DNA of 64,000 nucleotides from Catajapyx aquilonaris (lineage: Eukaryota). Numbering within the stretch: position 1 is the first letter of the stretch; each line of letters opens with the position of its first letter. Both the position numbers and the translations under genes were made by a program. The stretch is from NCBI GenBank assembly GCA_000934665.2, contig JYFJ02001087.1, positions 1 through 64,000 of the forward strand, in the 5' to 3' direction. Under the pieces are notes generated by a model. That model was not told the DNA's origin. It saw nothing but the letters and a program-made list of their open reading frames with translations, and searched no databases. Positions 1 through 64,000 of this stretch are shown one piece after another.

Positions 1-147
1 CGTGGAGCGTCTGAGCGCACCCGTTCCTCGTCTATGAACACCCTCTAGATGGCGTTTCCGGACACGGTTTCCTATGTCAAAAATGTTTGTCTTGGTCTCC
101 TCTATCACCCCTACAAGTTTGTCGATCGAATTCATTTACACCCTGTA
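1..147. mobile_element. Possible right end of a Tc1/mariner-type non-autonomous element truncated by the window edge
   Basis: Ends in ...TTTACACCCTG followed by TA (146-147), the reverse complement of the TA-CAGGGTG terminus common in Tc1/mariner elements. A similar terminus TACAGGGTGATTCAAAA occurs at 3445. No transposase seen. Confidence 0.3.
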
Positions 148-630
148 TAAACATGCATTCCAACACTTTTCGGCACCAAAATGTCATTACTCGATAAATT
201 ATAGGGGGTTTAAAAGTCACTCGCAAATTGGCCGGAAACACGGGGGCGTGGCCTAAAAAGCGCATTCCCACTCCTGCCTAACCAAGGAGACAACAGTGAC
301 GTCAGCAGTTCGTTGCCTCGCGGCCGTTTGATTCGGCTTATTTACTGGTGGTCCCGTTCGATTCGGATTTATACCATGATTTATACTTACGGTCGTTCGA
401 TTCCGTTGTTAGGAAACAAACAACCCGGGTGCATTCCTGCCTCTGCACCGATCTTTTAACAACAGTGACGTCAGAGGGCAATACGATACCATATAATTAT
501 TATGATATTAGATCGATCATAGCTCGAACACTAATAGCCTATATTTATTTCTTCAAACATAAAACACCAAAATTTATTTTAAAATAAGGACAATTTTTTC
601 ATGGGTTTGCAAAATGTAGGCTAGGACTCC

Positions 631-990
631 ATTTGGCCATTCAAATCATAATAATTGCATTCACTAGAAACTAGACACCGATTCGAATGATACTGGTATT
701 ATTGGGATATGTGGCCCCTCCAGAAAACATTGTGACAGTTCCCTATGACACGGGCAGCTATAGGATAACACATTGAATTAATAAAAGCGTGAAAACTCAA
801 TTATTACAGTATACGGTAGTAAACTTTGTTAATAAAAAACAATGTTGGTGTATCGCCAGTTAGCAAGTGTCTGGCCGTAAGATAACTGTAATTTCATTTC
901 CCTTTTTTACGACAGTGACATCATATTCAGAAAAAAATTGCAGGCTGCTGTTGAAAAGTGGCGGGTCACGAATGTCTTATTATGCAAATA
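631..990 (+). repeat. Diverged direct repeat, copy 1 (partner at 5222-5537)
   Basis: Collinear blocks ATTTGGCCATTCAA, CACTAGAAACT, GATTCGAATGATA, GTGACAGTTCCCTATGACACGGG, GCGTGAAAACT, TTTGTTAATAAAAA, TTGCAGGC, CTGTTGAAAAGTGG and TTATGCAAAT shared with 5222-5537. Confidence 0.9.
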
Positions 991-1180
991 ATTTATGGAA
1001 AGAAAAGTACCGTACCATATAATCATAAAAATATGGAAATTAGAGCATGCATTAAATGTTTTCTGATATTTTGTACCTGCATCGGTTGCTATTAAATTAA
1101 ATGTGAAATTTCCTCCAAGTGTGCTGCTTAGGAGTGCAACTATCTAGTTTGGGTTAATAGCAGTATGACTTTCAAGTGGA

Positions 1181-1251
1181 GCATCGGTGGTTCAGTGGTA
1201 GAATGCTCGCCTGCCACGCGGGCGACCCGGGTTCGATTCCCGGCCGATGCA
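1181..1251 (+). tRNA. tRNA-Gly-GCC: tRNA-Gly, anticodon GCC (intronless, 71 nt)
   Basis: Full cloverleaf: acceptor GCATCGG/CCGATGC plus discriminator A; D arm GTTC-AGTGGTA-GAAT; anticodon arm CTCGC-CTGCCAC-GCGGG; variable loop CGAC; T arm CCGGG-TTCGATT-CCCGG. Closely matches the familiar arthropod cytosolic tRNA-Gly(GCC) sequence. Confidence 0.98.
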
Positions 1252-1260
1252 ACTGATTTC

Positions 1261-1265
1261 TTTTT
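1261..1265 (+). terminator. RNA polymerase III oligo-T terminator of tRNA-Gly
   Basis: TTTTT run starting 10 nt after the discriminator base. Confidence 0.8.
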
Positions 1266-1564
1266 CTCTCTCGCCATCACTTCATTTTGATTCCATTGAA
1301 GCGTGGAATTTACAGTTTCACAGCCGATGTATTGTCTATGGTCTGAAGGGAATTATCTTAATTACCATAATGTATTCGTTGCTATTTTTAAACAGAGCCT
1401 CTTGAAGATTTGAATTTTTATGTTAATTTGAAAGCGGAAATATGCAAATTGGCCACCTTATGGTAATTTATCATGAAAGAAACTAATATTTACCAAGTAC
1501 TTTCAATTTTCACAGTTTCAGGAAGCATTATGTAGTGATCACTGCTACGCGAGAACTTCCGTAA

Positions 1565-1596
1565 AGGCCATTTCACAAAAAAATGTGAAATGGCCT
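1565..1596. mobile_element. 32-bp minimal PIF/Harbinger-like MITE or internally deleted remnant
   Basis: Perfect 13-bp terminal inverted repeats AGGCCATTTCACA (1565-1577) / TGTGAAATGGCCT (1584-1596) around A6, flanked on both sides by TAA (1562-1564, 1597-1599). Absent from the paralogous spacer at about 2776-2790 (GAGAACTTCCTTAGA). Confidence 0.6.
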
Positions 1597-1675
1597 TAAC
1601 GGAGTATAAAGGCACTCGTGTAATCTTTGCATAATTATATGAAGGCATTTATTCCAGATATAGCTTTCAAGTGAA

Positions 1676-1770
1676 GCGTCGGTGGTTCAGTGGTAGAATG
1701 CTCGTGGATCCTGTCCGGCCGGCAGGATCGCCACCCTCGAGCGACCCGGGTTCGATTCCCGGCCGACGTA
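1676..1770 (+). ncRNA. tRNA-Gly-derived Pol III RNA with the anticodon arm replaced by an extended hairpin (copy A, 95 nt)
   Basis: D arm, variable loop and T arm identical to the tRNA at 1181-1251. Acceptor GCGTCGG/CCGACGT plus A. A 41-nt arm (1701-1741) replaces the 17-nt anticodon arm. TTTTT terminator at 1773-1777. Confidence 0.75.
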
Positions 1771-2587
1771 CCTTTTTCTTATTTATTTTCCCCCCTTCCA
1801 CTTTCTCTTATAAACCTGAGACAACACTTTTGCTACCTTAGATTCTCGCTCTTGTTCTATTGGGTTATTCGTTATGACTTTTTATTGAATATAAAGTCAT
1901 TCAGTTCGGCGCATGGTTCGGCGCAATATTTTCAGCTAATACTTTTGACAACCATTAAATGCAACTATGCAAAAGTAACTGCTACAAAATAACCATGTGG
2001 GACTAGCATATGCACCCAAAATAGCTTCCAAATAGCCTACATGACGATATGAAAGAAATGAATGGAAATCAGTATAAGTGAATGGAAATGGAAGCCATTT
2101 ATGCTCTCTGCGTGGCCTGACCAGTCACCAGAGAGTTCATTGTATCTGTCAAACGAGATGGCCAAATACTTGTATCGGGTCATCAATGATGGCCATCCCT
2201 TAACCCTGTAACTGTGACGTATAGGGTCGTTTAGGACCCCAAAGGAATTAAAATGCATTAAAATGATAATTACACTTTTGCTATTTAAAAAAGTATATAA
2301 CAGGAAGTCCATGTTTATTTTGAATTAGCGATCGTTTTAGGCATTGTTCAAAGAATGATTGCATATACTGTTATAACAATTTATGAAATATGGATGGGGT
2401 CCTATAAGACTCCACGTCACGGTTGCCGTAACTTTCAGGCACGTCAGGATTCCATGGTTAATGCACTGGGGGTTGCGAAGCCTTTTCCGGGGGGTCGCAC
2501 GTGGCTGCAGTAATTTTTATAAATTAAAAAATTACTAAAATTTAAAACAAATAAAAAAGTTATAGGAAATTTCATCGCGAATGTTCC

Positions 2588-2600
2588 CCCGGACGATGCA
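2588..2600 (+). pseudogene. 3'-terminal remnant of a second tRNA-Gly(GCC) gene
   Basis: CCCGGACGATGCA matches tRNA-Gly 1239-1251 (CCCGGCCGATGCA) at 12 of 13 positions. It is followed by a recognisable copy of the tRNA's 3' flank (TTTCTTTTTCTCTC...TGAAG(T/C)GTGGAAT...ACAGTTTCA(G/C)AGCCGATGT). The 5' part of the tRNA is missing. Confidence 0.75.
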
Positions 2601-2886
2601 ACGACTGCTTTCTTTTTCTCTCATTTTATTTAGCCTTTAATGAAGTGTGGAATAATTGACAGTTTCAGAGCCGATGTTATTTGCGATCTACAGTATACTG
2701 TACATAGATTTGTCAATAATTTTTTATATTTTTACGAGGTTATAGAGAGCATTTTGTAGTCTTGAGTGCTACACGAGAACTTCCTTAGAAGAGTGATGTA
2801 CAGTACGTATAAACAAGATATAAAGGCACACCGTTTGTCGTCTTTGCATATGAAGGCATTTATTCCAGATATAGCTTTCAAGGGAA

Positions 2887-2990
2887 GCGTCGGTGGTTCA
2901 GTGGTAGAATGTTCGGGAATCCTGTCTGGCCAGCAACAGCAGGATAACAGCAACTCTCGAGCGACCCGGGTTCGATTCCCGGCCGAGGTA
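2887..2990 (+). ncRNA. tRNA-Gly-derived Pol III RNA with the anticodon arm replaced by an extended hairpin (copy B, 104 nt)
   Basis: Same architecture as 1676-1770: identical D and T arms, 50-nt arm at 2912-2961, acceptor GCGTCGG/CCGAGGT (one G:G mismatch) plus A, TTTTTT terminator at 2993-2998. Confidence 0.7.
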
Positions 2991-5221
2991 CATTTTTTCT
3001 TATTATCCCATTTTATTTTACCAGAGACAACACTTTTGCTACCTTTGATTTTGCAACATATTGTGCAAGTCTGATAGTGCAAGTGGAAACTAGCTATAAG
3101 CGGTAGAGTCCAGAGCAAGTGATAGGCTACTTGCGTGCACTTTGTGTCTTTTGCCCACGTTTTGTGATTTTCTTCCAATATTATCGTTGTTATTCGATTT
3201 TTGCTCTGGTTTGCGACCTTATATTTATACCTTAGGTCTATAAAATTATTCTGGCTTTTTTAATTTTCTGCATTACTTTATCCTCCATATGCCCCAAAAA
3301 GTAAATTTTTTGTGCCTATTAAGAGGTTTTTTCGTACCTATTTAAGTGCCTATTTGAGGTTTTTTTCGTGCATAAAAATCCGGACTCTAGTCATCTGTCA
3401 TTCATGGACAACCAGCAGGCCTACTCTCTTGTAGAGTATCAAAATACAGGGTGATTCAAAAATACTGGTCCGATTGCTATGGCTATTTCTTGGAACTAAG
3501 CGGTTTATTGAAGCATTTAATTTTGCATATAAAATATGCTAGCTGCCAATATTGTGTGGTGTGTACACATATTTGCAATTAAAATTTTTACGAGCTTGCA
3601 AGTGGGTTATGTCATTAACCTGAGCTGCCAATCTATTGTCCCAATAGAAAGGAAAAGAACCTCAGTAACTGAAATTGAAAAGTGTAGTTTGATATCACTT
3701 ATTTCGTACATGATTATTACGACATGGTGAAGCACAGTTCTTATTTTTAGGGGTCAATTATTTCATTTGAAGTAATAGGTCCTATTACTGGAATTCCTAT
3801 GAGGTGATGCAGTAGCCTACTTACAATTAGATAAGGTCAGATGAAATAGGATCTGAGGCTTAGGTAGAATGTTTAAAAAAATTATTTTTTGTTGCATCCA
3901 AGAAAGCCATTTATCAGTTCCATAATTATATGATTTTATTTTGGTCATAGAGTAGCCTAATACCTACTTTTCAAAAGAATTCATGCTTATCTTATGCTCA
4001 TAATTTCATTTTAATTAACTTACATGACTTTCATTGAATTGTACTGAATGCTCACTACTGGTAACCATATTTTAAGCAACGAGGCTTAACCACATGTTAT
4101 TCTATAGATCTAGAGTTAATGTCATTCTTTTCAACACATCGTAAGTCAAATCGCTTTAAATGCCGAAAGAATCAATCTTGTCAACGGTCACACCCAGAAT
4201 GAACTACAGTAGATTAGCTAAACCGACAGATGAAGATAGTCACGCCACAATTTTAGGGTAGCCCTCCAGTAGCATCAATTTGACAATGAATCTCCAAATC
4301 CCTGGCAGCACCTCAGGCTGCTCCTTCCTGATAAAGGTGCAGTTAATGCGTAATTAGCCCATGTTGCATTTGCGGGTCAGAAATTTTCGGGACCTCCCAA
4401 AAAAAACTATAGGAAGGGTCGTCTGGGAGAGATAGTTTTAGAGGTGGGGTTGGTGTTGAGGGTGGGTGGGGTGTAAAGCTGCGCAGAGGATTTGAAGAGA
4501 GGAGGGGCCTGGCGCTGGCGCCAACGTCTAATGGCGCAACGGACATTGCGCAGGCCATACCCGATTCTGCCTCTTTTTTTGCTCCTTTTTGCGGGTCAGA
4601 TCTGGGAAGCTCTTCCAGTGTGTCGGAGCTTGCGGGTTGGCGCTAAGTTGGCGCCACAGACTCCGGCTTCTACTTTTGCTCTTTTTTCTCTCTCGCAAAG
4701 GAGGGGGTGGAAACGGGGGGGTTCACAATCTGTTTTGCATTGATCTGGCCAAGACCCCAGTGCTTGCTTAGGGAGTGAGTTTGAGAGGACACATGCAGAA
4801 GATGTTTTCAGATGTGGTGATTGTGTGAATGTGGCCGTCCAGAGGCGAATAACGGCTTTGGTTGTTTTGCGTGACATTGCGGGCACGGTTCTTTTTTCTT
4901 TTCTTTTTAAAAAAGTTTCTTCACGGTGGATTTGTATCGAAAAGTGGTTGACATGTGGCCATTGGCGTCCACGTTGAAGTTACCAACCTGGTTGACAAGG
5001 TACGGATTTTATTGCAATTTTTTGTCGTGTTATGTTGGTGTGTACAGTACAACTAAATTGACAATGTCGCACACAGATGCGGTATGATAATTTTACAACG
5101 GCTACAAAATAATAATTGAACAACCGGAATCATAAATACCACTTATTGTTTGTATATGTCGTATCAATGATTTTATAACTTTTACATTAATTATTATCCA
5201 ACATAACAATATTATTGTTCT

Positions 5222-43300: not shown

Positions 43301-46300
43301 GCATGACTGCATGTGACCTTTTAGCAGGAGGAATGTTCTTTACATTCAGGCAACACTGCTATTTCATTTTGAATTTTCTTCTTGTTTCCTCCTGTACTAC
43401 GAACAGCTCCATTTCTGGGGGGGGCCTTGCTGCAGTTTCCTTCAACTTATCACGACAGATAAGATCCTGGCCAATTTCCACGAACCTTGTCAGCTTTGCG
43501 AGCTCCCACAGTTATAATCCGAAATGAAAAATTCGCCTCCCGGATCAGAACGGAAATGGCGGTACAGTTTGCTTTGACACTTTGGTGATGGAAAAGTAGG
43601 GCGTCTCATTGGGGAAAGTTTGTCGCGAAATAATGAGAAATATGTTTCACACTTTCGTGCAAATAAGGAGCAGGATAGTGAATCTTGCTATGCCGATTCC
43701 GATTTGCAATTTCATCGTTAGTTTTAATTTGTAAAATATCAGATGAAGTTAGCCGCATATTTTAATATCTCATCATGAAAATGTGTGCCAAGGGTAATCG
43801 AGGCAGCAAGAATCTTTAAACCCAGAAAAAGTAATAAAGAATCCAGAAATACCCAGCAGCACACAAGCTATCCAACTTCAAAAGCAAAAATTTCTTTCTT
43901 TTTTCTCTCTCTCTCTCCATCCGAGCTCGTTTCTTGAGGCCTCCTCACATTTGGAAACTATTACTCATCTTCTCCTTTTCATACAACTCCACAGAAACGT
44001 CTTGCTTCCACAGAACCTGCTGACAAGAGGATCTAAATCATTAAGATAACTTACAGAGGCTCCCTCTGGACGTTCATATTTTCGTACAATTAACTACCGG
44101 TACGGAGAAAAGAACTTTCCAGAACCATTCAAGTAGGATATACTGTAAGGACGTAACTAGCTTTGAAATTGTTATACATGAAAGTTGGTGTCAAAAGTAC
44201 CCAAATTATTTACCTGATTCTGTACGCTCACAATCCTATAATATTCAGCGACGTATTTGAAGCCTGACGACTTTACGCTGCTGTACAGCATCAAAGACAC
44301 AATTGAATTTTGCGAGTTACTGACTACTGCGCTACCTCGCCTGACTTTGACAGCCTACAACGGCTACAAAATTATTCCTATATGCACGTTACTTTTATCC
44401 CGTTCCCCCCCCCCCTCGGAATTCCATAATATTTGCTACGAGCGTGTGTGTATCCATTACTCTAGTAGCAGGCAGCAAAATAATCTCACCCAACAATTTC
44501 ACGCCCCTCAAAAAAAAAAATGGCCGAAACTCACGAATGAAAATTAGCTGCAGTGAGTACAGGGTGGTCCACTTCCCGATGTCCTACTCCGCGATGTATC
44601 GATACACATCGATATTTGGTTCATATATGGAAGCAAAGTGACGTCAATGGTTGTGATTGGCCTGTGGCTGCTTCTATACTTCTCCCAGCTTCCACTCGTT
44701 TCCGGACAAACATCCGGACGTAATTTGGGGATTGAACCACCCTGTGCATCCGGATGCAGGCTAGATAATGCAATGTCGGCAGTGGCGGAAGTGAAGGATT
44801 CTATTCGAGCCAAAGCAACATCCAGGCGTGTTGGAGGTATGGGGAGGGAAAAGGGAAGGGGCCCCATGTATCATGCATGTATTCGCCCAGAATAAGCGGC
44901 GTGTTCAAGGAAAATGCAGGAGAGGCGTGCTGATGAAGGCAGTGCCTGGAATGCAACTAGAGAGCGTAAATTAGGGACGGGGCCAGCAGCCAGGAAAGGC
45001 GGAAGAGCCGGGGTATTCCCATGACCCCCTTTTGTCGGCACTGTTTCCACTTATTTCCATCAAGTGCGGCCTGGGAATATTTTTTTTTGTAAGCCTTGGA
45101 GAGGCTAAAAAATAAGGGATCCGGAGCTGAGAGTCTAGGCCACAGATAGGATCCACTTTCCGGGCACGGCCTAGGACAAAAGCTCTCGGCTGCAGGCAGG
45201 TGTCGATAAGAAGCTTGCGGATGACTGGCTTCTGGATGTTTAAAAATGTGTGAGAGGGAGAAGAGAGAGGGACCAAGTTGGAGCCCAGGAAATTGGCTTC
45301 CACTATAATACTGTACAAGGATTTATGCTGCATTGGTTGTGTAACTAGGTTTTAAATTGCGAATTTTATCTAGGATATAGAATTTTTAAATTGTATCCTA
45401 ACTAACATCTGAATTGCCTTTTTCTTTTCCCCAGGGTCTGAGCCCATATTACGTGGGTCTGGGCCCGTCTGTGAGCCAGCTGGCGGAAGCGATGCGTCGC
45501 CTGTTGGTGTTCAGCCAGTGGCACACGTTCACGGTGATCACGGACGACTCCCCGGGGATGTACGCGGTACGGCGCGAGTGGGAAGCGGCGCTGCACATAC
45601 GCGGAGAGGTCGGGGTGTGGTCTGGAGAGGACGAGGACGATGGGGACGAGGAGGACCTAACCTCTACAGGAGGGGTGGTTGGATACCCGGGTGCCTTCGG
45701 AGTCACGCTGTCCGCCACCGCAACGCTGGTTCCGACGTTTGTGACGGTGCGCGACGACGCGGACCAGCACTCGCTGTTCAGGAAGCTGAGCGACCTCAAC
45801 AAGCTGACCCAAGGCGTGATAGTGCTCCTGTGCGACCCTGGGGTTGTGGATCGGTTGTTCTCGGCAGCCAGGAAGCTGCACATGCTCTCAGGCGACTGGG
45901 TGTGGATAGTGGTGCAGCCAGTGCACACCACAAAGGCCGTGTCCTTGCCCGAGCCCCAGGAGTACCCAGTGGGGTTGCTCGCGCTCAGGGCCAGGGAGCT
46001 TGACCTGACCAAGTCCTTGGTCAAGGGGGCGGTCAGGATGATTGCAGACGCGGTCGAGGCGCCCAGGGTCAGGGACGCCCTCGTTGCCTGGGAGGAATCC
46101 TCGGGAGGAAATAAAGAAGTGGAAAAGGCCAGCTGCTGGGAGGAACCTTCCGTCATGAGGAAAGCATTCGCTGAAGCCTTCACCAGGTAGGTGCAAATAC
46201 CATCTTCCTCATGTTAGGTGCTTCTTCTGCACACTGATTTACGCCCTCGCGATTTGAGCCTCGGTCGCACGACCAGACACTTTGCCACCGACAAAAATGG

Positions 46301-62000: not shown

Positions 62001-64000
62001 TATTTGCAGTCCTGTTAGGTGCATGGAAAAAAACTAGTCTGCTTTTCAGAATTTTTGTGAGAGTTTTTTTTTGCGGCTGGAAAAGGGGTTGGTTAGTTGG
62101 GTTCACTGGAAGGGGGGACACTTTTGGTCCAACCGATACGCCTCGCATGTGTAATTTGGCCCAAAGCGGTGTCCTCTTGGGCATTGTGTTTGTGCTGTGG
62201 GGAAGTGCCGCACTTTCGCTTCTCCTGTGATCATGTTGATAGAATCTGGCAGGAAAGACAGTATATCGGGGCCCATTTTGCCAGGGGAAATGTGCTAAGA
62301 GTAGTTTGCCAGCAAAGAGCCCAGTCTGAACCTATAACGGAATACTGGCAACATAACAATCCTTAATGCGTACAACTTATAATACTGTTGGATTTCAGGG
62401 GTTTCAGTACGAAGTGACCTGCTGCTATGGGTTTGCCATGGACCTGTTATTGAGTGTGTCTAAAGAACTTCATTTCGACTTCCACCTGTACGTGGTCGCC
62501 GACGGTTGGAGTGGCGCCAAGAGAGGCTCCAAATGGAACGGGTTGGTCGCAGACCTGGTTTCCGGAGCTGCACATCTAAGTTTTGCACCTCTCAGCGTCA
62601 TCTCGACCCGATCTGAAGTGAGTATGCTCTTTTCTCATGGGGAACGTCACTCGGTTCAAAGTTTCTCTCAGGGGAGGGACAAATTTCTAATCGGAATTGG
62701 AATCCGTGCACTTGCACAGTAGCCAATTCCTTTCAAGAGTTGAGCACTTTTCAATTCAATAAAATGTGCTGGAAGTGCAGTGACATCGTGTATACATCAC
62801 CGGTAATTTATATCCTGCCCCAAATCCTTCAGATCAAGGGATACCTATTGACTTCCTTTAGTCTACTCAAGACAAATTCAAGTACAATTACACAATAACA
62901 ATTTAATTGGAGAGCCACAAACCACACTCAACTATTGATAGGCAACATCCCCAATGAATCAGAGAGAATGGGTAGTAAATTAGCCTGAATTGTGCCCTCA
63001 GGAATTCTCTTGCCAATAACAATCTCCTGACATGACCTCCCACAATGCAATGTTAGTTGTCGTTGAAAATTCAGACCATGGATATTCCAGGTGATCCTCC
63101 TTTGCCATAGGATCAGCTCGAAGAAACAGCTTTCACGTCAGGAGAGATTGATACTTTTGCTGGCTACTGTATACAGTACTGCCATCCAGTCACAAGTTGA
63201 CGGATTTCTCTAATAAAAAAGGGCACGTCCAGGACCTGAGGGCATGAGTCACGCCATATTGGATTTGTGTCAGGGATCACTTGTAACCTGTAACATCCTA
63301 GGTTAGGTTGTTGCAGTGGGGGACACTGCGGCTGTGTTATACTTCTGGGAGGGACGGGTATTGTGGAGGCCTCCAAATCCCTAGGCCCAATCTTAACCTA
63401 CAAAGACACAGGGAGCCTGGGGAGAGACAAAGAGGAAAGTGTCTGGTGGGAAGATAGATGAAGCAAGTGGCGCCAAAAAGGGGGTTGCAAGCTGCACCCA
63501 TGGGAAGAATCCCCTTTCCCCTGGATGGGGATGCAGCAGGCTTCCCACTAAACTTGTCACGCTTGATTCCTCATCCGGGCCCTTCCCTGGGAGGGTTTCT
63601 GGGGAGCTTAGGGGACGACATGGAGGCTCCACGCTTGATTTATTTCCATCAACCGCACCGAGATGCGACAGAAGGAAGCGTGTAACGTGATTACATGACC
63701 TGGTTTTCTTCCGCAAAGTCCGGCACAATCATGGATTCCCCTGCCGGACGCGACCTCATGCGGCAGCGCGGGGGACGCGCGTCCCCACGCGCCTATAGTG
63801 ACGTCACTCGCCTCACCCTTTGTTTGTTCCTTTCGTTTCAGGTGCTAGACTACTCCGTCCCGTTCCTGTACTCGGGGATCTCGTTTGTTCAGGCGGCGTC
63901 GTGTTATTACGACGTTCCTCTGTTGGCCTTTCTGGTCCCCTTCAGCCCCGAGCTCTGGATAGCCATCTTGATTAGCCTGAACATCACGGCCATCGCAGTG
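24496..64000 (+). CDS. Ionotropic glutamate receptor, NMDA class (probably arthropod NMDAR3/GluN3-like), 5' part; join(24496..24612,28065..28325,45435..46186,57767..58043,61148..61309,62399..62617,63842..>64000)
   Basis: Seven exons, all GT-AG, intron phases 0,0,2,0,0,0, giving 649 uninterrupted codons. iGluR/NMDA motifs: signal peptide; ATD (GLGPSVSQLAEAMRRLL..QWHTFTVI, GDWVWIV, YPVGLLAL); IIWPGG; RVVT...PPF; NMDA-type cysteine loop (TCIKGRTC...CCYGFAMDLL); FDFHLYVVADG; WNGLVADLVSGAAHLSFAPLSVISTRSEVLDYSVPF; AFLVPFSPELW into M1. Confidence 0.93.
28065..28325 (+). CDS. NMDA-type receptor coding exon 2 (ATD, R1 lobe)
   Basis: Acceptor TCTCTTTCGGACAG|, donor AAG|GTTAGC; 87 codons MLNKTLAAVN...LEQVCSTVEQQRIGVFLAL...GVPVVGV...HADK; GC-rich codon usage. 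Confidence 0.88.
37288..37368. repeat. (ACT)27 microsatellite
   Basis: Perfect trinucleotide run in the intron between coding exons 2 and 3. Confidence 0.97.
45435..46186 (+). CDS. NMDA-type receptor coding exon 3 (ATD)
   Basis: Acceptor TTTTCTTTTCCCCAG|, donor CAG|GTAGGT (phase 2); GLSPYYVGLGPSVSQLAEAM...GVIVLLCD...LHMLSGDWVWIV...YPVGLLALR...SCW. Confidence 0.93.
46238..46462. mobile_element. About 225-bp palindromic (fold-back) MITE-like element
   Basis: Left arm TTTACG..CTCGCGATTTGAGCCTCGGTCGCACGACCAGACACTTTGCCACCGACAAAAATGGGTTC is nearly the reverse complement of the right arm GAACCTATTTTTGTCGGTCGCAAAGCGTCTGGTCGTGCGACAAAGGCTCAAATCGTGAG..CGTAAA. Inner arms (CGGAACGACT..GAGGCATATGCGACCG / CGGTCGCATGCCTC..AGTTGTTCCG) also pair. 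No clear target-site duplication. Confidence 0.75.
46984..47052. repeat. (TTA)23 microsatellite
   Basis: Perfect trinucleotide run; explains the poly-Leu ORF 46894..47136. Confidence 0.97.
57767..58043 (+). CDS. NMDA-type receptor coding exon 4 (end of ATD, linker)
   Basis: Acceptor TATTTGCAG| supplies the G completing the AG-G Arg codon; ...FDLLNLV...KVWRPVGTI...LETIIWPGG...GKK; donor AAG|GTACGT. Confidence 0.92.
58112..58206. repeat. Short imperfect inverted repeat
   Basis: CAACAGTGACGTGAT (58122-58136) / ATCACGTCACAGTTG (58167-58181), 14 of 15 complementary, enclosed by TTGGGA/TCCCAA. Confidence 0.6.
61148..61309 (+). CDS. NMDA-type receptor coding exon 5 (start of S1, loop 1)
   Basis: Acceptor CTTTTCTGCCCTCAG|; VYRVVTMWAPPFMMEED..TCIKGRTCLRIRTADKDNITLIF...NQ; donor CAG|GTGGGA. 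Confidence 0.9.
62399..62617 (+). CDS. NMDA-type receptor coding exon 6 (S1 ligand-binding segment)
   Basis: GFQYEVTCCYGFAMDLL...FDFHLYVVADGWSGAKRGSKWNGLVADLVSGAAHLSFAPLSVISTRSE; donor GAA|GTGAGT. A second in-frame acceptor would start the exon at 62408. Confidence 0.95.
63842..64000 (+). CDS. NMDA-type receptor coding exon 7 (end of S1, pre-M1, M1), truncated by the window edge
   Basis: Acceptor TTTCGTTTCAG|; VLDYSVPFLYSGISFVQAASCYYDVPLLAFLVPFSPELWIAILISLNITAIAV. Not listed in the ORF track. Confidence 0.95.
   Translation, partial: MLDYSVPFLYSGISFVQAASCYYDVPLLAFLVPFSPELWIAILISLNITAIAV

Follow-up and report, generated by a model that had tools for sequence, protein, structure and literature searches.

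Two genes that lie next to a canonical tRNA-Gly gene (anticodon GCC) of Catajapyx aquilonaris retain the body of the tRNA and carry a far longer hairpin in place of its anticodon arm. The likeliest reading, which we hold tentatively, is that they are transcribed genes for non-decoding tRNA-like RNAs. The genes, here called copies A and B, were analysed within a stretch of 64,000 nucleotides (the window). The original prediction described them as two tRNA-Gly derivatives beside the real gene, and both their coordinates and their anatomy are confirmed by the Rfam search and by direct reading (Table 1). It had also argued against SINE retroposition, and this stands: the flanks are common to both copies and no tail is present, which points to local duplication. 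Judged by these features, copies A and B are local segmental duplicates of the adjacent tRNA-Gly and are not retroposed, and their likeness to each other is a matter of homology through duplication, not of chance.

The Rfam scan finds exactly three matches to the tRNA family RF00005 in the window, namely the parent gene and the two copies, and both copies score above the gathering score of 29 bits. The inserts reported by Rfam (33 nt in A, 42 nt in B) fall at the anticodon loop. With default settings, ARAGORN recognizes the parent and copy A but not copy B. The MFE structure of the parent is the cloverleaf, with a z of -2.45 against shuffles. The copies are part of two direct repeats of ~500–670 nt, ~1.2 kb apart, with one tRNA-like gene in each. 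The final ~13 nt of the conserved 5′ flank of copy A are also found in the 5′ flank of the parent, and beyond position -39 the identity between the flanks of A and B is only 69%. The 22-nt core of the conserved 3′ block occurs at just two sites within the window. Repeat unit 2 is headed by the remnant of a second tRNA-Gly gene, in a region of 77% identity to the equivalent part of unit 1; the 5′ two-thirds of this gene are gone and indels are present. The decay of this unconstrained piece can be counted in favour of constraint on the bodies of A and B. The locus is matched in four DNA sequencing runs, all from one sample of one study that is possibly the source of the assembly itself; no RNA run is among the matches, which has no bearing on whether the genes are expressed.

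Table 1. Features of the tRNA-Gly locus, with positions in the window.
Feature	Position	Strand	Details
Parent gene, canonical tRNA-Gly (anticodon GCC), 71 nt	1181..1251	+	ARAGORN; Rfam RF00005, 66.6 bits
Copy A, tRNA-Gly body, 95 nt; G1.U72, G3-C70, discriminator A	1676..1770	+	RF00005, 49.4 bits, 33-nt insert
Copy B, tRNA-Gly body, 104 nt; G1.U72, G3.G70 mismatch	2887..2990	+	RF00005, 40.3 bits, 42-nt insert
Arm of copy A, 41 nt	1701..1741	+	Basal stem, 3′ bulge, helix, palindromic tip; pair listing and pair probabilities
Arm of copy B, 50 nt	2912..2961	+	7-bp basal stem, 3′ bulge, helix, palindromic tip; pair listing and pair probabilities
T5 run, Pol III terminator-like	1773..1777	+	2 nt past copy A discriminator, read directly
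T6 run, Pol III terminator-like	2993..2998	+	2 nt past copy B discriminator, read directly
Conserved 5′ flank of copy A (-39..-1)	1637..1675	+	38/39 identical to 2848–2886
Conserved 5′ flank of copy B (-39..-1)	2848..2886	+	31-nt core only at copies A and B in window
Conserved block 3′ of copy A	1814..1844	+	29/31 identical to 3020–3050
Conserved block 3′ of copy B	3020..3050	+	Counterpart of 1814–1844
Second tRNA-Gly gene, 3′ remnant (T-loop to discriminator), head of repeat unit 2	2579..2600	+	Alignment of 1236–1420 with 2575–2760

The D arm, variable loop and T arm of A and B are letter-identical to those of the parent, as are the A box and the B box (the B-box 14-mer is exact in all three genes). 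Over the 5′ 25 nt the two copies are the same and depart from the parent solely at position 3; over the 3′ 29 nt position 70 alone distinguishes them from each other, and positions 70 and 72 distinguish them from the parent. Copy A is changed from the parent at three of 54 body positions. G3 and U72 are derived states, common to A and B and absent from the parent. The discriminator, the proximal 5′ flank motif and the oligo-T terminator are shared by all three genes, and apart from positions 3, 70 and 72 so is the acceptor stem; what sets the parent apart is its anticodon arm, which has 17 nt and is replaced by 41 nt in A and 50 nt in B.

The acceptor-stem changes first described, a G1.U72 pair in both copies and G3-C70 in copy A, are present, but that account left out a G3.G70 mismatch in copy B, which is flagged as a non-standard pair in the Rfam alignment. 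It should be pointed out that G3.G70 and G1.U72 weaken the stem, and that decaying tRNA genes typically show such changes too. An alanine identity was considered and dropped; a G3.U70 pair was perhaps present in the ancestor and is absent now.

The distance from A box to B box is increased by 24 nt in copy A and by 33 nt in copy B, and in type-2 promoters TFIIIC tolerates increases of this size. With both boxes intact and a T5 or T6 run close downstream, the two copies have the appearance of complete type-2 Pol III genes, as had been proposed. Their acceptor, D and T arms form a cloverleaf that scores above the tRNA family threshold.

All 15 pairs that had been listed for the enlarged arm exist; 14 are standard and one is U.U in copy A, and all 15 are standard in copy B. 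Of the plan proposed for the arm, the basal stem, the bulge and the helix are present, but the ‘GGCC-capped tip’ has a pair probability of only 0.27 in A and 0.00 in B. In copy A the 3′ bulge (CGCCAC, 1729–1734) retains the anticodon-loop bases of the parent, the helix is formed by 1708–1713 and 1723–1728, and the palindromic tip CCGGCCGG is at 1715–1722. The corresponding parts of copy B are the bulge AACAGCAAC (2946–2954), the helix 2919–2924/2940–2945 and the palindromic tip CTGGCCAG (2926–2933), which is followed by 6 extra nt. The invariant 6-bp helix has a pair probability of at least 0.93 in both copies in the thermodynamic ensemble, and the motif ATCCTG-N(5–30)-CAGGAT that specifies it is found twice in the window, with 0.20 occurrences expected. 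The two upper pairs of the copy A basal stem reach only 0.17–0.25, because a GUGG/CCAC pairing competes with them.

The arm taken alone has an MFE of -15.8 kcal/mol in A (z -1.28) and -17.3 kcal/mol in B (z -3.13), and the folding energies of the whole genes are ordinary against shuffles (z -0.93 for A, -1.70 for B). The arm of copy A is a near-palindrome centred on its tip, and its isolated palindromic fold is slightly favoured, -15.8 compared with -15.2 kcal/mol for the structure first proposed.

Comparison of A with B reveals a marked contrast in rates. Of the 414 sites of distal flank that can be aligned, 112 (27.1%) differ, as against one of 54 in the body (binomial P 8.4e-7 relative to the flank rate). 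Outside the A and B boxes one of 31 body sites differs (P 7e-4), and therefore the conservation extends past the promoter boxes. The arm has 8 differences in 41 positions plus 9 nt in two indels, and as a whole diverges at about the neutral rate; the segments around it have 1/39, 0/25 and 1/29 differences. All of the 7–8 CpGs in the body are kept, and three of the five in the arm of copy A are lost in B. The rate contrast between body and flanks provides the best evidence for function, and the body conservation fits a constrained tRNA chassis. The conserved block is contiguous around both genes, from -39 to ~+16, and could be a product of gene conversion between the two copies instead of selection.

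The evidence from base-pairing is less direct. All six substitutions at paired positions of the arm leave a standard pair. When six random substitutions were simulated from copy A, all 15 pairs survived in 0.04–0.25% of cases (20,000 trials per setting), and from copy B at least 14 pairs survived in 6–14% of trials; this pairing statistic depends on direction, and the structure used for it was picked after the sequences had been seen. Pairs were compared in a hand-made register and not in the MAFFT alignment of the two sequences, in which the 3′ half of the invariant helix is misaligned; on that alignment RNAalifold finds only one pair in which both partners are changed (covariation term -0.75). 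Of the co-varying arm as originally presented, one clean change from G-C to A-U in the basal stem stands, but the change at the tip consists of two CpG transitions in a palindrome. The two doubly changed pairs are predicted to be improbable in copy A (0.17 and 0.27), and the tip pair has 0.00 in B. The case for covariation is thus weaker than first stated, as it is drawn from two sequences only. A near-palindromic arm can arise through template-switch mutation and stay paired without selection.

These properties bear directly on the main rival explanation, to which we give a smaller, though not negligible, share of belief: A and B would be inactive or decaying tRNA-Gly pseudogenes, whose anticodon arm was destroyed once by a palindromic insertion (e.g. 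by a template switch) before the unit was duplicated. The likeness of the bodies would then come from gene conversion, either with the numerous tRNA-Gly genes as donors or from one copy to the other, and arm pairing would persist via the making and repair of palindromes in DNA together with symmetric CpG decay. The near-palindromic arm of copy A, which when isolated prefers the palindromic fold, is as expected for such an origin. A perfect hairpin with 20-nt arms (1558–1603) is found in repeat unit 1 and is absent from unit 2, and therefore palindrome-making mutation has occurred at this locus. There is also a precedent: one study reports that template switching produces perfect stems and compensatory changes in a single event (PMC8794818). 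The near-neutral divergence of the arm, the G3.G70 mismatch of copy B and the single contiguous block of conservation add to this side. Conversion, however, meets difficulties with either donor. Ordinary tRNA-Gly genes would be expected to have restored the parental bases at positions 3, 70 and 72 and deleted the insert, and G3 and U72, being common to A and B and absent from the parent, make wholesale conversion from such genes an awkward explanation. Had A and B converted each other across the block, the arm in its middle should also be homogenized, but 8 substitutions and two indels separate the two arms. In addition, the basal-stem change from G-C to A-U is not located at CpG sites, nor is it among the pairs that the palindrome itself forms.

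The remaining alternatives are each improbable. One is that A and B are intron-containing tRNA genes in which splicing removes the insert and leaves a tRNA able to decode; this we consider very unlikely. The insert is at the anticodon loop, the 5′ strand is continuous, the anticodon-loop region pairs with the insert and the 3′ strand is bulged near the stem, all as in pre-tRNAs with introns. The invariant ATCCTG could be an anticodon loop paired to the intron, in which case the loop reads A-U-CCU-G-C (Arg-CCU); neither ATCCTG nor the C preceding the 3′ stem varies between the copies, and the ARAGORN call for copy A is tRNA-Arg(CCT). Alternatively a non-canonical intron could lie 5′ of the retained GCC. 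By hand enumeration, however, any single contiguous excision leaves either a 7-bp anticodon stem or a 5-bp stem with a loop that lacks U33, and no splice choice yields a canonical anticodon arm. A 7-bp stem exceeds the 6 bp that PMC7609411 gives as the maximum for the anticodon stem of the natural decoding tRNAs it reviews. When ARAGORN allows introns, copy A becomes an Arg-CCT with a 3-nt ‘intron’ and an extra arm of more than 20 nt, and copy B a Ser-ACT with a 35-nt intron directly at the stem/loop junction and U33 absent; for homologous copies these intron and isotype calls are mutually incompatible. A bulge-helix-bulge is absent, as the 5′ strand bulge is just 1 nt and is separated from the 3′ bulge by 6 bp and not 4. 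The eukaryotic tRNA endonuclease measures its cut sites from the tRNA body, and sites measured in this way would land within helices. The non-decoding nature that had been proposed is upheld: an anticodon stem of 5 bp (6 at most) with a 7-nt loop containing U33 cannot be drawn in either copy, and therefore the product cannot decode. Equally improbable is a role as DNA elements only, i.e. as boundary or insulator sites near neighbouring genes that bind TFIIIC or Pol III and are not kept for an RNA. The perfect retention of both boxes and three more B-box-like motifs on the same strand at 326–405 would agree with such a role, and tDNAs and extra-TFIIIC sites are known insulators. Conservation, however, is equally strict outside the boxes (30 of 31 positions), and it includes the acceptor stem and the terminator, which are not needed for TFIIIC binding. 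A mobile element, only marginally more plausible, would consist of tRNA-derived SINE heads, or of tRNA-like promoters in the LTRs of a small non-autonomous element of the Helenus/TRIMp3 type. The two direct repeats, each with a tRNA-like gene, would agree with such an element, and PMC10886601 reports, for six animal phyla, Helenus elements that have tRNA-like sequences within their LTRs. These elements and tRNA-derived SINEs resemble A and B in having direct repeats and a tRNA-like sequence that keeps A and B boxes but does not work as a tRNA (PMC10886601). They differ in that A and B have a terminator directly after the tRNA-like part; LTR hallmarks were not recognized by eye, and a tail and dispersed copies are absent within the window. 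With oligo-T 2 nt past the discriminator, a Pol III transcript would end too early to take in either a SINE body or an LTR with its internal region, and no A-rich or LINE-like tail follows. Repeat unit 1 opens with the complete canonical tRNA-Gly, whose 5′ flank resembles those of the variants, which argues for nested local duplication and not for LTRs. TG...CA termini, a primer-binding site and a polypurine tract were not recognized by eye at the junctions or expected places. The flank blocks do not occur again within the window, which contains only the two adjacent copies.

Contamination with an engineered vector, suggested by BamHI, EagI, XhoI and GCCACC-like motifs in the arm of copy A, was rejected: copy B is without most of these motifs, and both copies have diverged genomic flanks.

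If the favoured reading of A and B as non-decoding tRNA-like RNA genes is correct, they would be lineage-specific paralogues of tRNA-Gly-GCC that still work as Pol III genes. The unchanged A and B boxes would be read by TFIIIC, and Pol III transcription would begin within the conserved flank that contains CAA, a few nucleotides upstream of the gene, and end at the T5 or T6 run. RNase P, RNase Z and the CCA-adding enzyme could then process the transcript as they do a tRNA, via the intact acceptor stem, T arm and elbow. The predicted product is a tRNA-shaped RNA of ~95–104 nt that is unable to decode, in which the place of the anticodon arm would be occupied by the basal stem, the 3′ bulge, the invariant 6-bp helix and a self-complementary tip. 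Its partner might be, as a guess, a protein or, through the palindromic tip, a second copy of the same RNA. Transcription, processing and stability of these RNAs are inferred from sequence signals. Against the favoured reading, only two copies are present in the window and these are adjacent.

Several known RNAs are related in design. BC1, mascRNA and the tRNA-like RNAs of gammaherpesvirus 68 are non-decoding and use a tRNA-type promoter, tRNA processing enzymes, or both, as is proposed for A and B. BC1, however, has lost the cloverleaf fold, mascRNA is released by cleavage of a Pol II transcript, and in the viral RNAs the hairpins are downstream of the tRNA-like part; A and B keep the cloverleaf and have the hairpin inside it. 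The Rfam model of mascRNA matches only the parent gene, and weakly (24.7 bits, compared with a gathering score of 42.5); A and B are not matched. Also related are the engineered tRNA scaffolds, which are man-made and carry recombinant RNA cargo in the anticodon arm of an intact tRNA chassis. There too a foreign hairpin stands for the anticodon stem-loop, and reliance on tRNA processing and stability is expected. In contrast to these constructs, A and B are natural, diverged genomic copies with their own flanks, present in the organism's DNA sequencing runs, and their cargo role is putative.

The original prediction did not recognize A and B as a described family, and they match no catalogued Rfam family besides tRNA: among all 4227 families of Rfam 15, searched over positions 1–4000, with E values up to 1, none other falls on them. 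These families include vault, Y, 7SL and mascRNA. In the literature searched, which did not cover subscription journals, no natural tRNA with an anticodon arm exchanged for a larger hairpin was found. The 20-nt junction of arm, variable loop and T stem occurs at 20 metagenome, 6 prokaryote and 0 viral loci, in collections that hardly sample animals. None of these 26 loci has an enlarged arm, and ARAGORN places a tRNA under one of them, an ordinary 73-nt tRNA-Glu. The pattern of insert plus junction gave no matches in metagenome contigs, a blank that is uninformative as animals are hardly sampled. The designation of a ‘new class’ is unsupported by two adjacent paralogues.

The favoured reading can be taken further, to a natural tRNA scaffold, and this we regard as rather doubtful. 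A tRNA-Gly chassis under selection would transcribe, process and stabilize a fast-diverging hairpin, and the RNAs would be paralogue-specific tRNA mimics that dimerize or bind a partner. The 8-nt tip is self-complementary in each paralogue and differs between them (CCGGCCGG in A, CUGGCCAG in B), and for this reason A-A and B-B duplexes are favoured in silico over A-B (cofold minus two monomers -17.7, -8.7 and -3.5 kcal/mol, respectively). Such mimics could titrate tRNA-binding factors, or could present the retained anticodon-loop bases in the bulge.

Should A and B prove to be pseudogenes, they would illustrate clearly that RNA covariation can be mimicked by palindrome-making mutation together with CpG decay. 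If the RNAs are made and selected, evolution would have reached the design of the engineered scaffolds, with the unchanged tRNA body buying Pol III expression, processing by RNase P and RNase Z, and stability for a hairpin unrelated to it. A type that retains the cloverleaf would then join the short list of tRNA-derived regulatory RNAs, and the locus would offer a tractable case of a tRNA gene recruited to a new role after tandem duplication.

Only three tRNA-like genes turn up in ARAGORN and Rfam scans of the whole 64 kb, all on one strand: a canonical tRNA-Gly gene (the parent) and two derivatives, copies A and B, in which an enlarged arm takes the place of the 17-nt anticodon arm. The RF00005 model aligns full-length to A and B, skipping 33 nt (A) and 42 nt (B) exactly at the anticodon loop. 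Sequence reading and counting show no difference between the two copies over the 5′ 25 nt, and a single one from the parent, at position 3. Across the 3′ 29 nt, which run from the variable loop through the T arm and the 3′ acceptor strand to discriminator A, position 70 alone distinguishes the copies; relative to the parent, each copy departs at positions 70 and 72. Runs of T5 (A) and T6 (B) begin 2 nt past the discriminator. The original prediction of two genes that preserve the tRNA-Gly D arm, variable loop, T arm and discriminator A, with an oligo-T terminator 2 nt downstream, is borne out; it omitted that the acceptor stem of copy B contains a G3.G70 mismatch. The tentatively preferred reading is that A and B are active Pol III genes whose tRNA-like product does not decode. 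Pol III would transcribe them, the tRNA machinery would mature the transcripts, and the RNA would display a fast-evolving hairpin.

Features of the tRNA-Gly locus and its surroundings
Feature	Position	Strand	Details
tRNA-Gly(GCC), canonical parent	1181-1251	+	Rfam RF00005, 66.6 bits
Copy A, 95 nt	1676-1770	+	Rfam RF00005, 49.4 bits
Copy B, 104 nt	2887-2990	+	Rfam RF00005, 40.3 bits
Arms of A / B	1701-1741 / 2912-2961		41 / 50 nt
Inverted repeat, unit 1	1558-1603		20-nt arms, 95% complementary, A6 loop
Downstream blocks	1814-1844 / 3020-3050		2/31 differ (29/31 identical)
tRNA-Gly remnant, unit 2	about 2579-2600		last ~20 nt
Inverted repeats, 16 nt	2226-2241 / 2395-2410		88% complementary, 153 nt apart
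Three B-box/T-arm-like motifs	326-405	+	spacings 30 and 39 nt
CRE-like 16-mers	290-305, 459-474, 909-924		two exact, one 81% identity
Ionotropic glutamate receptor exons	45402-46190, 62357-62722	+	ANF_receptor E 6e-10; Lig_chan-Glu_bd E 6.8e-14

The pattern of rates is the chief support for a functional product shaped like a tRNA. At alignable sites of the distal flanks, the repeated blocks containing A (unit 1) and B (unit 2) differ at 112 of 414 positions (27.1%). The tRNA body differs at 1/54 (P 8.4e-7), and the proximal 5′ flank (-39..-1) at 1/39. Blocks 45-75 nt downstream are nearly identical in a flank of only ~73% identity. When the A and B boxes are set aside, 1 of the remaining 31 body positions differs (P 7e-4), and it is very unlikely that the copies are simply TFIIIC sites at the DNA level. 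The arm differs at 8/41 positions, with 6-nt and 3-nt indels in addition, and is thus the fast-changing portion of an otherwise frozen 160-nt block. All body CpGs are retained (8 in A and 7 in B, the difference being the position-70 change), and three of the five arm CpGs of A are lost in B.

The arms had also been described as co-varying. The arm plan is as drawn, all 15 listed pairs are present, and each of the six substitutions at paired positions leaves a standard pair, by one-sided changes (C-G to U.G; U.U to G.U) and both-sided ones (G-C to A-U; at the tip, C-G to U-A). In simulations of 20,000 trials per setting, six random substitutions from A leave all 15 pairs intact in 0.04-0.25% of trials; from B, at least 14 are kept in 6-14%. 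The one clean double-change pair has a probability of 0.96 in B and 0.17 in A, the latter low because GUGG/CCAC competes. The tip does not stand as well: its change consists of two CpG transitions in an 8-nt palindrome (CCGGCCGG to CTGGCCAG), which persists in half of the outcomes if both CpGs decay, and the pair is barely predicted (0.27 in A, 0.00 in B). RNAalifold credits one compensatory pair on an automatic alignment. The 6-bp helix (pair probability at least 0.93 in both copies) is invariant, which says nothing either way. Covariation is suggestive only, since there are two sequences and the structure was drawn afterwards.

The arm of copy A is near-palindromic around its tip. Its 3′ bulge, CGCCAC, holds the same five bases as the parent anticodon and next two positions, and sits immediately ahead of the stem's 3′ strand. 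Most simply, a hairpin would have been inserted on the 5′ side of the anticodon and the stem lengthened by 2 bp. The inverted repeat upstream of copy A has no counterpart at the equivalent site of unit 2, has only weak sub-threshold miRNA-like Rfam matches (E 0.11-0.63), and resembles an insertion made by template switching or foldback; a palindrome-creating mutation has therefore happened at this locus. It should be pointed out that stems and multi-base compensatory changes are among the products of single template-switching events described in PMC8794818. Such mutation explains the origin of the arm without selection and, together with the CpG transitions behind the tip 'compensation', lends weight to the main rival, a dead tRNA-Gly gene pair homogenised by conversion, in which DNA-level palindrome dynamics mimic covariation. 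This rival is nonetheless doubtful. Palindrome dynamics leave the frozen body unexplained, the derived G3 and U72 common to A and B speak against ordinary tRNA-Gly genes having converted them repeatedly, and the divergent arm within the conserved block argues against recent A-B conversion.

An odd tRNA matured by splicing is very improbable. All ways of excising one contiguous stretch from the arm were enumerated by hand, and none yields a 7-nt loop with U33 on a 5-bp stem. A 7-bp stem allows two tidy loops, either A-U-CCU-G-C (both copies) or one in which the retained anticodon bases follow A-U, but exceeds the 6-bp anticodon stem of the longest natural decoding tRNAs among those reviewed in PMC7609411. 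A decoding tRNA is rejected, as no excision gives a canonical anticodon arm. With introns allowed, ARAGORN reads A as Arg-CCT (3-nt intron, long extra arm) and B as Ser-ACT (35-nt intron at the stem/loop junction). These calls are mutually incompatible, and pair lists and pair probabilities contain no bulge-helix-bulge motif in the arms, so a coherent intron is also rejected. A mobile element is scarcely more probable. The units are direct repeats, and Helenus-type elements of several animal phyla are described as carrying tRNA-like sequences within LTRs (PMC10886601); A and B differ from these by the terminator, at which an element transcript would end. In addition, a whole tRNA-Gly gene stands at the start of unit 1, and no LTR ends, PBS or PPT were seen by eye at the units. 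A SINE head is excluded for these two copies by the terminator 2 nt after each gene and by the shared flanks, the latter already cited against retroposition in the original prediction.

The unit of tRNA-Gly, ~420 nt spacer and variant occurs twice, with the tRNA-Gly of unit 2 reduced to a remnant whose following flank is 77% identical to that downstream of the intact gene. Because the final ~13 nt of 5′ flank and a short motif ~80-95 nt upstream are common to the variants and the parent, the first variant is taken as the product of an older tRNA-Gly duplication, the pair being copied by a later one. The flank blocks have no further occurrence in the 64 kb window. The 16-nt inverted repeats in the spacer between units form a MITE-like footprint and may have contributed to the second tRNA-Gly gene's disruption. 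The B-box/T-arm-like motif GTTYGATTCSG has 8 matches in the window versus 1.55 expected. The three clustered motifs each lie within a short stem, one preceded by a piece similar to the tRNA-Gly 5′ part, and may be what is left of tRNA-Gly genes after internal deletion, or additional TFIIIC sites. The first two 16-mers with a CRE-like TGACGTCA core flank this cluster on both sides. The neighbouring receptor gene is 40 kb from the tRNA locus, and its nearest Atlas clusters are eukaryotic, mostly animal, which identifies an animal host.

The original prediction recognised no described family, and the Rfam scan agrees: at E up to 1, tRNA is the only family on A and B. Scans for relatives in metagenome, prokaryote and viral collections gave nothing relevant. 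The literature searched (main texts) describes tRNA scaffolds made by engineering and a range of tRNA-like RNAs, but no naturally occurring tRNA was found there that keeps its cloverleaf while carrying an enlarged arm unable to decode. A 'new class' is premature; A and B are assigned to tRNA-derived Pol III RNA genes. The case depends on two adjacent paralogues with a striking anatomy and contrast in rates, and it lends itself to direct testing.
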